NCBI GenBank assembly: GCA_013265495.1 | Contig: MU058153.1 | Coordinates: forward strand, 684,001-748,000 | Length of the DNA: 64,000 bases | Direction: 5' to 3' | Source: Vicugna vicugna | Lineage: Eukaryota | Shown here: positions 3,681 to 42,154 of the stretch, piece by piece | How positions within the stretch are numbered: position 1 is the first letter of the stretch | How the letters are laid out: every line of letters starts with the position of its first letter | The notes under the pieces: model-generated | The model's database searches: none | What the model was told of the DNA's origin: nothing | What the model saw: only the letters and a program-made list of their open reading frames with translations | Program-made: the position numbers and the translations under genes

Positions 3681-5712
3681 GGAAAGGTTAGAGTCCAATG
3701 AATCAACCTTTTTTTCTTTAACATTAAAAATCTCTGGAAAAAAAAATGTTTTTGAGAAGGTCTAAATCCTGGAGAAAGAAATAAAATTAGGTCTGTAATT
3801 TTAGGTCTGGTGTAGTTATAATTCCATAATCTGCTAAGAGTTTATTTTCCTGCCTTTTATTAAGGTTTGTCATTTCTGTAACCATTTTTTTTTTCTATGT
3901 GAATACATTCTTTCAAATATCTATTAGATGTCTGTCTACTGTTTAAAAGGCACTGGCTATTTGCATATGTGTTACTTTTTGTTTTTCAATAGTACCTACA
4001 ACATGCATTCAGCTCTCAAGGGGGTTGAATGAAAAAAGTAAACGATTCCATCTGGATATTTAAGCAACTCCACTGGGAGGCAGAACATTTACACATATAA
4101 CTGCCATATAAGAGACACATGATGTGAATCATCCAAGTAAGGATGTTACCAGTTTAGGCTCCGGTTATACCAAATTCTTCCTGGGAGAAAAGCGATTTAA
4201 GCTTTTGTCTATGTTGCCTGCATTCCTACTGTTTTTTCAATCTTGTAACACAATTTGTAATCAATTTTCCAGACACATTTGTTGGTAGATAGATGAGTGA
4301 GTGCTTTTTAAGAACTAAAATTTAAGGGGTGGAGGGAAGACTATGACAATTTCAACATGACAGTTTTCAAATTTATTATTTCTTAATTATACATGCTTTA
4401 CTAAGTCACAATCTATAACCATTTAGCAAAATATAGAAATAAAATTTGACGGAATTTTTTTCCCCTGTATCTGAAACTTCTGTCAGAATAATAAGAATAT
4501 ATGACAAATGAAATAAAGGAAAGCCTTTCTATATTTGCAAATCTGAATAGTCAAAGAATGAAACTTTGTATAGCATATCAGTTGTGCCTATAAAAATAAT
4601 ACACAGTTACTGGAGATAAATTTAAAATACTGAGATATCTAAAAAAAGAAATTGTATTGCCCTTGTCAGTCCTGCGTTCCAGAAATAATCATTAACATTG
4701 CCATGCGTTTTCATCCAGGCTTTAATCCTTATGAAAATGCGTTTTACACCTGAGTCTTCTGTAACTCAAACTGAATGCAAAATTCTGTTTCCTAATGTTA
4801 TTATTTAAATATAGGGCGTGCTGGTTTGCACAGTATTGCAGAATTTTCAGAACTAAAATTTTCAAATGGAAGTAATGATTCAACTGCTAGTTACTATTAA
4901 TATTTTCTATTTTTGGTATTATCATAAATAATGCTGTGTTAACAACATTTTTTCCCCTCTAAGGCCAGAATTCCATGCTGTGTTTTCTATGATTTTTCCC
5001 TTGATTTTTCCAAATGAAAGGGGTTGCTCTTTCGCTTGAACGTGCTTGAATTAACTTCTTTAGGCTATTTGCATGCGTGAATTGTCTCCTGTAGTAGGGT
5101 CTTTTTGTTTTCTTCGATTAACTGGTACCTTCTAAGTATTCTCTAAATATTTGTTAAACAAATGTTTAAAGAAAGAACTGTTAAGGAATATAATGATTTT
5201 TTTAAATTAGCTTTTATATCTAGAACTCATTGTCAATATAGTCACTTGCCCAGGAGATTATGTTTCCTTCAGGTTAAATGCAGAGTTGTTGAAATTCAAT
5301 CATAAGCTCATTCAATGAAAGTTCTTACAATTGTCAAAAACATCAACTTAACTAAGCATTAGCCTTGGCAAAATAAATTTGAACTGGCAGCCACTTCACA
5401 AAATTGCTAATTGTTCTTAGTTGACTGTATATCTTAGTGGGCATTTGAGCTTTCACAATGAAATGCATATACATAGTCAATCTTAGGTTCTTCTAATATT
5501 ATCTTAGCTCCCTGAATTACTCAAAAGTATAATTCACAAGTCAAATATTTTATGTTTCATTTATTTAAAGTATAACTTATACTAACCTATGTATCTATAC
5601 TGTCTGTTGATAAATAATATATTTTTATTCATTATGCAGTTAACTAGTATTTCTGGAATGCATGTGGTGGCCTTGAACACAGGACTTTGGAAATATGGTT
5701 CCTGTCTTAAAG

Positions 5713-32969: not shown

Positions 32970-33400
32970 ATAGAGCTGGAAGAAGGTGACTAGCCGCTCA
33001 CCAAAGATTTGCATTTCCTTCCCATAGTACAGATTCTCGGTGGAAAAGGCTGCTCATACTAGAACCGTTGACTATTGTTGGCCGTGTGACTCTTTCCAAT
33101 CAACAGAATTTGAGCAGAGTTGATGGGTATCACAGTTTGTTTGAAATGGTCAAGAAATGTGAGGGCTTCCACCCTCTCTTTCTTTGTCTGCTGGCTTGAA
33201 GCAAAAGACTCTGAGGCCCTGGGAGATGGCAGAAATTACAAAATGAGAGTGGCTTAATGACTGATCCATGTTCCAAGTTTTATCCACCAACTGCTTTAAT
33301 AAACTGTTAGGTGAACAAGAAGTAAACTTCTTATTTTGTTCAGCTGCTGTGATTCTAGGGAATCTTCTCTTATAGAAGTTAGCATTATCTTACCTCATTT
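32970..33400 (+). mobile_element. ERVL-MaLR solo LTR, older MLT1 (I/J-like)
   Basis: ggccgtgtgact...cagaatttgagcagagttgatgggtatcac...actctgaggccctgggagatggcaga...gtgaacaagaagtaaacttcttattttgttcagctgctgtgatt. Confidence 0.75.
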
Positions 33401-33587
33401 AAGGACTTTGATGAAAACGTTAGGAATCTGAACCTCGGCCATGTTAGAAATTTTAAATACATTATAAGGTGCTGGCAAAACTGGGAATAGAACTCAGAAA
33501 GACTGAAATTACCCATTGTGAGGGCCTCAAGCATAGAAAGCAACAGATTAGGAGAAATTGAAAAGAAATAAAAGAATGAAAGAAGGG

Positions 33588-33930
33588 GAGGGGGTGGGCC
33601 AAGACGGCAGAGTAGAAGGACGCCTAGCTCACCCTCTCCCACGAATACAGCTAAAACCACAGCTACATACAGAAAAAATCACACAGGATACCTACTGAAC
33701 TTCTGCAGAATATCTCTTACATTGGAAATACAAGGAAATCCTCACAAAACTGATAAACAAGTTTCTAGTGTATAGCACAGGCAACTATACTCAATATCTT
33801 GTAGTAACCTATAATGAAAAGAATATGAAAAGAATATATTTTTGTGTATGTATGACTGAAACATTGTGCTGTACACCAGAAATTGACACAATGTTGTAAA
33901 GTGACTACACTTCAATTAAAAAATAAAAAT
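33588..33930 (+). mobile_element. Bipartite mini-L1: L1 5'UTR start (33588-33752) fused to the L1 3'UTR end and A-rich tail (33753-33930), bounded by a TSD
   Basis: The 5' part is a G-rich start plus ccaagacggcagagtagaaggacgcctagctcaccctctcccac...acctactgaac, matching the L1 5' end with a decayed YY1 site. The 3' part aligns to the L1 copy at 41825-41994. 17-bp TSD AAAGAA[T/G]GAAAGAAGGG at 33571-33587 and 33931-33947. Confidence 0.85.
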
Positions 33931-35119
33931 AAAGAAGGAAAGAAGGGTCAAAGAACTGTATCACTAATGATTTATTATCTAGAAGGAGTCCTTGATCAAA
34001 AAGTAGATGGGATATTCTTCCCCTCTCTTCTTTCCAGAGGGAGTAACTCCTCTGTTCTTTAAGTCAGATTTGATGCAGAGGACCAGCTTGGTAAATACCA
34101 CATGTGGTCCATTGCCTCCTCTAATTCTGTGTGTACTCTTAACTTAAAGGAAGACATAAGAAAGGAAGCTTAAAGAGATTTATTGATTAAACAAACAAAC
34201 AAACTTGCTCTTTTCACACTTGTATACGACCTGCTTACTTCATTGTCCATCTAAGGTTCCCGTCCGTTCCATGTAACATAATCTCTCTTTCTGATATTAT
34301 CCAGTTATTCTGCATCTGACCTCATGGAATTATAAAATCTGTAAGCATGCATTTCTAAGTCTATGCATATCTCTAGCACCTTGCTCTTTGGTAAATTGTA
34401 TATGCTCTATTTTGGGTGGAAATATTTTTACCCAGAGAAGTTTCCCGAAGTCAAAGCCAGAAAGACAACTGCTTATCTTCTGGCTGTACCTTTTCCCAAT
34501 TTATTGCTCATTCTCAGAAACATGCCCTGCTTGACAGCCATAGAGAGAATTGACATTTTGTGCAGTGTTAATAGTTCTGATTTTTTTGAATGGTTTCATC
34601 TATGTGGACTAATTATGGTACCTTTTTCAATGGCTAGATTGTGATTACTTACTGGCTTATGTTTTGTCAAGCCAGCATTTGTGGAAAGAGCAGGCCATGA
34701 TCTGACAAGGCTAATTTAAATAGTGTTTACATTTGTGAGCAGTTTGCAAAGGGCATGTTCACACAATGTGATTTGTTTTGTTAACCTACAAAGAAAAAAT
34801 TGACAGAGGGTAATACCTTGGGAAATGAACTTGGGACAGGAGGGTTGGAGGGGCCTGTAAGGGAGGGAACAAAAAAAACAGCAGACAAGCCAAAAAGAAA
34901 TTATATCTGAAATACATCTTTGCCTACTTTATAACAGTACAATGGGGAAAATATATGCCAAGTGAAGCATCAGTTATTTTTTTGAATCTCAACGGAGTTT
35001 ACTCCGTTACTGAGTTTTGCAAAATTAGAAACCCTGACGTCAAAGGCATGGTTAGCCCCTTGTCCTCCACGGGTATAAGGCTCAGTATGTTTGATAAACC
35101 TGCCAAAGGGAATGTTCCA

Positions 35120-41485: not shown

Positions 41486-41530
<45 letters not shown>

Positions 41531-41994
41531 CAATGGAGTATTACTCAGCCATAAAAAAGAATTAAATAATGCAATTTGCAGCAACATGGATAGACTAGAG
41601 GTTATCATTCTAGGTGAAATAAGCCAGAAAGAAAAATAAAAATACAATGTGATATCACTGAGTTGTGGAATCTAAAATAAATATGTAAATGAACTTATTT
41701 ACAGACTCAAAATAGACTCACAGACATAAAGAACATACTATGGTTAATAAAGGGGAAAGGGGTGGGGGGAGGGATAAATCAGGTGTTTGGGATTAAAAGA
41801 TATACACTACTATACATAAAATAGATAAACAAGAATCTACTGTATAGCACAGGAAACTATTCAATATCTTGTAATAACCTATAATGGAAAAGAATCTGAA
41901 AATGAATATGTATATATGTATATATTTATAATGTATCATTGAATCACTGTTATACACCTAATACAACATTGTGAATCAACTATACTTCAATTAA
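41333..41994 (+). mobile_element. Relatively young cetartiodactyl/camelid LINE-1, 5'-truncated (end of ORF2 plus complete 3'UTR)
   Basis: gatccagcaatcccactcctaggtatatatccagag...gcaacctaagtgtccatcaacagatgactggataaagaag...G-rich tract...tgtatagcacagg...caactatacttcaatt; 15-bp TSD AAAA[A/T]TGCTTTTTGT at 41318-41332 and 41995-42009; TTTT/AAAA endonuclease site. Confidence 0.95.
41488..41527. repeat. (GT)6(AT)14 microsatellite inside the L1
   Basis: Directly visible. Confidence 0.95.
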
Positions 41995-42154
41995 AAAATT
42001 GCTTTTTGTTGGCACAGCTGTTAACATTGTTATTTTGGCTTCTCTCAAAAACTACCTTACTTGATGCCAACAATCACCTGGTGGCAAGTTGGATTAAGTT
42101 CATTTTACTTGGTAAAATTAGTAAATCATGACACCTTGATCATTAGCGTCACAA

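Follow-up and report, generated by a model that had tools for sequence, protein, structure and literature searches.

Among the described derivatives of the long interspersed element (LINE) L1, HAL1 (half-L1) keeps open reading frame (ORF) 1 and has been described as a propagating lineage. The human spliced integrated retrotransposed elements (SpIREs), among which the accessible text of Larson et al. (2018, PMC5860796) names SpIRE97/622, 97/790, 97/976 and 97/853, are retrocopies of spliced L1 RNA. Human L1 RNA is heavily spliced, and one of its products, the SpORF2 transcript, keeps ORF2 (PMC2896524, in the portion available). Internally deleted non-autonomous elements derived from R2 have been reported (PMC3414825), and a class of LINE-dependent elements in Dfam lacks a small-RNA promoter and consists mostly of LINE material (PMC7805219), again according to the available portions of these papers. 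In this study, an L1 derivative was analyzed that, like HAL1 and SpORF2, lacks part of the L1 coding region but keeps neither ORF. It lies in a 64,000-nucleotide (nt) stretch of the Vicugna vicugna genome (GenBank assembly GCA_013265495.1, contig MU058153.1, positions 684,001 to 748,000 of the forward strand), hereafter the window. The element joins the start of the L1 5' untranslated region (5'UTR) directly to the end of the L1 3'UTR, and the same junction occurs at a few hundred loci. It is probably a product of recurrent splicing of L1 RNA followed by mobilization in trans, and would represent an extreme type of SpIRE.

The element (a mini-L1, or mini, as are all copies of this structure) is a unit of 343 nt at window positions 33588 to 33930, enclosed by 17-nt direct repeats identical at 16 of 17 positions. 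A prediction made earlier from the letters of the window (the original prediction) had described a unit of L1 5' start and L1 3' end bounded by a target-site duplication (TSD), with its junction at 33752/33753; the unit was borne out by its coordinates, the repeats, the A-rich tail and the alignment of the 3' part, and the junction position was correct. The parts of the element, and the ordinary L1 3' end used for comparison, are as follows (a slash within letters marks a break or joint).

33571 to 33587, forward strand: left TSD, AAAGAATGAAAGAAGGG; a T precedes it, giving T/AAAAG, a T/AAAA-type L1 endonuclease site.
33588 to 33752, forward strand: exon-1 part, the first ~165 nt of the L1 5'UTR, aligned to 38 unspliced L1 5' ends, those that go on with GTAGG.
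33752/33753, forward strand: putative splice junction between exon 1 and exon 2, its placement ambiguous by a 1-nt G.
33753 to 33917, forward strand: exon-2 part, the last ~165 nt of the L1 3'UTR, first letters ATAAACAAG, in unspliced L1 directly 3' of the acceptor AG.
33918 to 33930, forward strand: A-rich tail AAAAAATAAAAAT, a poly(A) remnant, read from the sequence.
33931 to 33947, forward strand: right TSD, AAAGAAGGAAAGAAGGG, read from the sequence and from the repeat search.
41815 to 41999, forward strand: comparison copy outside the element, an ordinary 5'-truncated L1 3' end with the acceptor unspliced, AAAATAG/ATAAACAAG, AG at 41823 to 41824.

The L1 5' end contributes 165 nt and the L1 3' material, tail included, about 178 nt. 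The exon-1 part has a G-rich start, a run of G followed by CCAAGACGGC, with the YY1-box-like CAAGACGGC at 33600 to 33608 on the 3' side of the run, and its last letters at the putative splice donor are CCTCACAAAACTG. The 17-nt TSD, the T/AAAA site and the A-rich tail are hallmarks of L1 integration; the direct repeats were also recovered as repeat family D1 by the repeat search and scored 15 with the repeat finder used for all minis. Positions 33753 to 33924 aligned with 41825 to 41999 at 75% identity over 183 columns (E = 2e-31), and at the joint the comparison copy reads AAAATAG/ATAAACAAG (41818 to 41833) where the window mini reads CAAAACTG/ATAAACAAG. No second copy of the 5' part was found within the 64-kb window. 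The 343 nt consist of UTR parts only and retain no ORF, and so no ORF1-like frame of the HAL1 kind; the head is the start of the L1 5'UTR and not the RNA polymerase (Pol) III promoter of a short interspersed element (SINE) in the strict sense, as judged without a separate tRNA scan.

Searches for further copies covered the window's own genome (2.03 Gb, 12,405 contigs), and pattern counts were checked against reversed-pattern controls. A 60-mer spanning the joint gave 110 first-look candidates and 40 scored places, all aligned across the joint with 84 to 93% identity, and the whole unit of ~330 nt was alignable in 29 of 29 other loci (77 to 86% identity). The 5' half alone gave 1926 first-look candidates, the best 29 non-self loci being 21 whole minis and 8 loci with the 5' part only, which run on into other sequence. 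The spliced motif TCCTCACAAAAMYRGATAAAC had 34 exact matches (control, 0) and 191 with up to two mismatches (control, 44), and the unspliced donor motif TCCTCACAAAAMYRGGTAGGA had 12 (control, 0) and 147 (control, 22), respectively; with up to one mismatch, 88 spliced and 46 unspliced donor motifs were counted from the listings. Because the spliced pattern was exact in only 4 of the 21 minis found through the 5' half, and present with up to two mismatches in 11, the genome total is estimated from these patterns at roughly 200 to 300 minis or more. The unspliced acceptor motif CTATATATAAAATAGATAAAC had 5274 exact matches (control, 0), compared to the 34 exact spliced matches, so that minis make up about 0.6% of the L1 3' ends with the acceptor motif, a figure that is a lower bound on their share in their own subfamilies because the 3'UTR motif is common to other L1s. 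A strand bias among the exact spliced matches (26:8, p = 0.003) was dismissed as chance, the ratio being 100:91 at up to two mismatches.

Flanking repeats were scored in 56 minis and, with the same repeat finder, in 168 control pairs of flanks from different loci. Scores of at least 10 were reached in 27 of the 56 minis and in 5 of the 168 mismatched pairs (Fisher p = 1e-14), and scores of at least 12 in 14 and 1, respectively. The TSDs are all different among minis and mostly begin with runs of A, and the TSD-bounded minis begin 8 to 12 nt upstream of CCAAGATGGC with G-rich starts, like full-length copies. The junction search, the pattern counts and this survey together place the junction at many loci with different TSDs, a result that the original prediction had named as support for a family or for recurrent splicing.

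Unspliced L1 copies show what lies at the two break points. The unspliced 5'UTR reads CACAAAAC(C or T)(G or A)G/GTAGGAG, the loci with the 5' part only continue CCTCACAAAA[AC][CT][GA]G/GTAGGAG(A)n, and in the 38 aligned unspliced 5' ends, CACAAAA[AC][CT][GA]G/GTAGGAG, the GT is kept in 29 by our own reading. A GTAGG just downstream of the break had been named in the original prediction and is indeed present in the unspliced 5' ends. A donor-spanning stretch of one locus with the 5' part only gave 668 candidates, and most of the loci examined share the same 5' start; of 49 fetched stretches with the unspliced donor, 15 have a matching 3' end 6.6 to 7.25 kb downstream and are full length. The 6862-nt element at locus L125 carries the ORF1 domains Transposase_22 and Tnp_22_dsRBD, recognized by Pfam in a read-through translation with X at stops; RVT_1 was unscored in that translation, though a YADD motif is visible, and Pfam recognized no family in six separate stop-to-stop frames of the same element.

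At the other break, the unspliced 3'UTR reads TACTAACTACTATATATAAAATAG/ATAAAC. In the 15 full-length L1s the 3' match begins at the joint, where they read GATACTAACTACTATATATAAAATAG/ATAAAC, and the AG is kept in ~10 of the 15. The acceptor lies ~178 nt from the 3' end, not in the 5'UTR or ORF1. A branch-point-like TACTAAC places its A 18 nt before this AG, which is the first AG after the motif; 3 of the 15 carry the motif exactly, and ~10 carry it exactly or with one letter changed. TACTAAC agrees at every letter with the classical branch-point consensus. The minis themselves read AAAAC[CT][AG]G/ATAAACAACAAG at the joint, with CCGG, CCAG and CTGG variation as expected of CpG decay. In the window mini and ~8 others, the exon end at the junction (CCG/) is shorter by one G than in most copies, and three unspliced copies that belong to the 5' clade of the window copy (L041, L055 and L065) also have this shorter end before GT. 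Both halves of the mini derive from L1 and keep its order and orientation, as seen from the 38 5' ends, the L1 3' ends and the full-length elements. From these alignments the missing segment appears to be a canonical GT...AG intron of ~6.5 kb, and the single splice removing both ORFs that had been proposed in the original prediction is supported, as the deleted segment has GT as its first letters and AG as its last in unspliced L1.

The same acceptor appears to be used by a second GT donor, because the elements at two independent loci, L144 and L127, join CACAGAGG/ (~nt 373 of the 5'UTR) to the same /ATAAAC, and the unspliced copies L147 and L053 read CAGAGG/GTC at that donor. A census of this second isoform returned five pattern matches, in two of which 5'UTR and 3' end were confirmed; L205 holds 5'UTR only, and L206 and L207 are unconfirmed. 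Other 5'-intact, internally deleted L1s behave differently: GT..AG was found in 0 of 11 of their junctions, several show microhomology and none is recurrent, so that ordinary deletions differ from the mini joint. On the same count these elements were ruled out as further splice isoforms, and L156, which joins upstream of the acceptor, was ruled out as a splice product.

A deletion without splicing, made by a template jump of the reverse transcriptase or by genomic deletion at the G microhomology, either once with later spread or recurrently, would explain the G found on both sides of the joint, a 1-nt ambiguity, and would place the minis beside the other 5'-intact L1s of this genome, whose internal deletions have microhomology and no GT/AG. 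Against it stand the base-identical joint at 34 exact and ~150 net near-exact sites in several L1 subfamilies, the GT..AG fit (chance of such a placement, 0.008) with the branch-point-like motif 18 nt upstream, and the second GT donor that joins the same AG. Moreover, the 11 deletions that are not splices all differ from one another, and a single origin is rejected by the approximately unbiased (AU) tests given below, which leaves such a deletion very improbable.

The descent of the minis was analyzed in a 5'-only alignment of 56 minis and 38 unspliced 5' ends and in a joined 5' and 3' alignment of 56 minis and 15 full-length copies. No alignment position separates minis from full-length copies, the only differences being in frequency between L1 subfamilies. 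In the joined tree, the label mini needs 10 changes, and none of the 200 bootstrap trees unites the minis in one clade; 10 full-length copies group with 10 minis in a starred clade, a supported clade (94/95) holds 4 minis with 1 full-length copy, and no mini-only clade with support of at least 80 has more than 3 members. A single mini clade was rejected by the AU test in the joined tree (delta log-likelihood 126, p = 0.005) and with the 5' part alone (delta log-likelihood 174, p = 5.8e-7). The quick tree of the 5'-only alignment has one starred branch and is too poorly resolved for counting origins. Variants at the two ends co-occur alike in minis and full-length copies, AAGAAAATCC...AAAAC with TTTCTTCTG and AAGAAGATTCC...AAAAA with 3' forms particular to it, in support of the expectation that the two halves co-vary as in full-length L1 subfamilies. 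From the AU rejections, the interleaving, the co-varying ends and the lack of a private marker common to many minis it was concluded that several full-length L1 subfamilies each gave rise to minis, as recurrent splicing predicts, with some secondary amplification possible.

These data bear equally on the SINE-like self-propagating family considered in the original prediction, in which the 165-nt head of founder minis would have kept a Pol II promoter, L1 proteins would have copied these founders repeatedly, and most copies would descend from minis. Minis number a few hundred, a count equal to or above that of unspliced L1 5' ends, and, as would be the case in such a family, they begin where L1 itself begins and retain the YY1-like box. 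Two columns have a state found in at least 5 minis and in none of the 38 unspliced 5' ends, each a transition present in 6 of 56 minis. In comparison with the 15 full-length copies, most candidates for mini-private states are scattered transitions, and no mini-private marker is common to more than 6 of 56 minis. The sole transversion candidate, GGGAAC to GGCAAC in 8 minis including the window copy, was rejected as a private marker since ordinary L1 3' ends often carry it: GGCAAC has 115 exact sites, and the first 30 comprise 21 unspliced L1 3'UTRs, 1 mini and 8 that are neither. Self-propagation is also opposed by the AU tests, by the absence of a well-supported mini-only clade above 3 members, by the variants at both ends that follow full-length L1 subfamilies, by the ~0.6% share of minis among L1 3' ends with the acceptor motif, and by the reduced promoter activity of human SpIREs that lose 5'UTR sequence, as given in the accessible text on these elements (PMC5860796). 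Descent of most copies from minis is thus not supported and is unlikely.

Recurrent splicing followed by trans-mobilization has several points weighing against it as well. The pyrimidine tract at the acceptor is poor, as had been stated in the original prediction together with the 1-nt G microhomology, though the TACTAAC lies 18 nt upstream of the AG, and the donor (CGG/GTAGGA, or CAG/GTAGGA after CpG decay) fits 6 to 7 of 9 consensus positions by our own reading. Contigs of the RNA runs (X15, X16, X18 and X19) covered no more than the 3' part, which is highly repeated, and short pieces of flank, and gave no sign that this copy is transcribed or of splicing; since the joined form exists as DNA, such contigs cannot separate splicing from transcription of existing copies. 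Minis are as numerous as unspliced 5' ends or more so, at ratios of 1.2-2.8 to 1, far above the human SpIREs, which are 131 of 6609 (~2%) of annotated full-length L1PA1-6 in the available text of Larson et al. (PMC5860796). The excess needs abundant spliced RNA or efficient trans-mobilization. It is partly expected because an RNA of 340 nt is copied to its end, whereas L1 RNAs of 6.9 kb are mostly 5'-truncated on insertion. The ratio of minis to full-length copies also differs between 5'UTR variants (AAAAC 30:5, AAAAA 4:7; Fisher p = 0.003), a skew that speaks for self-propagation but may also stem from differences in splicing or age or from a degree of secondary amplification. Different seeds were used to sample the minis and the full-length copies, which biases the tree ratios but not the rejection of monophyly. 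Finally, tree resolution is low and the starred branches force only 2 mini origins, a number that also suits self-propagation, and a few founding splices, each amplified on its own, would also fit.

Recurrent splicing would proceed as follows. An L1 transcript would be spliced from the GT donor ~165 nt into the 5'UTR to the AG ~178 nt before the poly(A), so that one splice would remove both ORFs as an intron of ~6.5 kb; the form of the break points suggests that the spliceosome makes this RNA. The spliced RNA would then be reverse-transcribed into a T/AAAA site by the proteins of other L1s, mobilization in trans being suggested by copies that encode nothing. Each L1 subfamily would repeatedly have yielded its own minis as a by-product, and the copies would mostly have been dead on arrival. 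The median length of terminal branches in the joined tree is 0.12 changes per site and the minimum ~0.045, compared to 0.09 to 0.26 in full-length copies, which by the usual mammalian rate puts mini activity at roughly tens of millions of years ago.

In many respects the minis resemble human SpIREs as these are presented in the accessible text (PMC5860796): a GT donor within the first 100 to 170 nt of the 5'UTR, TSDs, a poly(A) tail and an endonuclease-type site, and the same junction at many loci and in successive L1 subfamilies, the SpIREs being regarded as splicing by-products and dead ends. In human SpIREs, according to the same portion of that report, the acceptor lies in the 5'UTR or ORF1, ORF2 is kept and the length is ~5.5 kb, whereas the minis have a 3'UTR acceptor, have lost both ORFs, measure ~340 nt and are wholly dependent on trans-acting proteins. 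Like processed pseudogenes, minis correspond to a spliced Pol II poly(A) RNA that does not code for its own mobilization and is copied in trans, with TSD and A tail, and to repeated independent insertions from expressed source genes. By this analogy they could be regarded in mechanism as processed pseudogenes of L1; unlike those of other genes, their source is L1 itself, with many active copies and its own L1 3' end, which is why one isoform could leave hundreds of copies. The R2-derived elements and the Dfam class share with minis the short length, the LINE ends and the need for the parent's proteins but are treated in the available portions of the two papers as propagating families, whereas minis carry an intron-type deletion and were apparently made afresh from full-length L1 RNA. 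A family of ORF-less L1 retrocopies from 5'UTR to 3'UTR was not found in the literature searched, although a mention in Belancio 2006/2008, Repbase or Dfam is possible, and the accessible part of a survey of camelid transposable elements (PMC8605555) does not mention such elements. The minis may thus be classed, by their structure, as an ORF-less 5'UTR-to-3'UTR type within the known SpIREs, a form for which no description was found.

By the prevailing view of cis preference, L1 proteins work chiefly on whichever RNA encoded them. Spliced L1 copies are rare in human, and here a non-coding isoform gave rise to a few hundred copies, a number similar to that of the unspliced 5' ends in the same L1 lineage; minis could serve as a natural record of how frequently germ-line L1 RNA was spliced and of the uptake in trans of a short RNA with an L1 3' end. 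With their L1 5' start retained, minis can be counted in error as full-length or '5'-intact' L1s during repeat annotation, and they are usable for dating the activity of L1 subfamilies. If some minis self-propagated, SINEs would have in them a counterpart derived from L1 and driven by Pol II. In the strongest form, which is unlikely, ORF-less minis would be an efficient parasite of L1, the promoter in the 165-nt head and recognition of the L1 3' end allowing re-transcription and re-mobilization. Were this so, it would explain why minis equal or exceed full-length 5' ends in number, as well as the six-fold over-representation of one 5'UTR variant, and minis of one camelid-ancestor L1 lineage would partly have filled the SINE niche in a genome poor in young tRNA SINEs.

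Contigs of sequencing runs under four organism labels all carry the filled site. One runs from the left flank into the element (33300 to 33633/35, 1 difference), two contigs have 0 differences, one of them spanning the joint (33721 to 33808), and a contig from the tail into the right flank (33904 to 34200) has 0 differences. Neither an empty site nor a full-length L1 at the orthologous locus was present among the contigs of these four labels, none of which skips exactly the element, and no more distant holder of the filled site was listed. If the window copy were a former full-length L1 that lost its interior by a later deletion at the locus, a longer form might be expected; the four labels carry the joined form with 0 to 1 differences and no longer form, and the joint is the family joint, common to loci with other TSDs. 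Such a deletion, a refuting case in the original prediction, has no specific point in its favor and is extremely improbable.

A shorter form of the region was seen in two RNA-labelled runs of one study (X16 and X18), in which a contig joins ~33393-33395 directly to 34129, the letters after the joint being those of 34129 to 34139. The contig is without ~735 nt (window 33394 to 34128), that is, the whole element and ~190 nt on each side. The ends of the missing segment are not GT/AG, and CT is common to both sides; the contig looks like a deletion allele or the state of another taxon and not like an empty pre-insertion site.

Some further arrangements of L1 sequence were noted. Two minis lie head to tail, ~290 nt apart, at one locus (L002/L003/L118, G000:C11790:6346400-6347400), the first covering unit positions 11 to 337 and the second 53 to 337, and the pair is probably a local duplication. 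Among the 49 stretches with an unspliced first donor (L124 to L172), many are 5'-intact but internally deleted at varied break points that are not GT/AG, and two of the internally deleted L1s (L137 and L171) have break points near 5670 with different partners. L051 and L058 have the L1 5' start and end soon after the donor region in an A-rich stretch or in unrelated sequence, and may be prematurely ended or rearranged copies. The element at L127 (G000:C5495:7795840-7796700) carries in its 5'UTR, at element positions ~353 to 561, a tRNA-type SINE with an A-rich tail, which contains GGTGGTAGAGTACATGCTTAGCATGC and then GGGTTCAATCCCCAG and has the flanking repeat GAACTGAGAGAAA. Within the window, a (TA)n microsatellite at 41500 to 41528 directly adjoins the 5' end of the truncated comparison L1 fragment.

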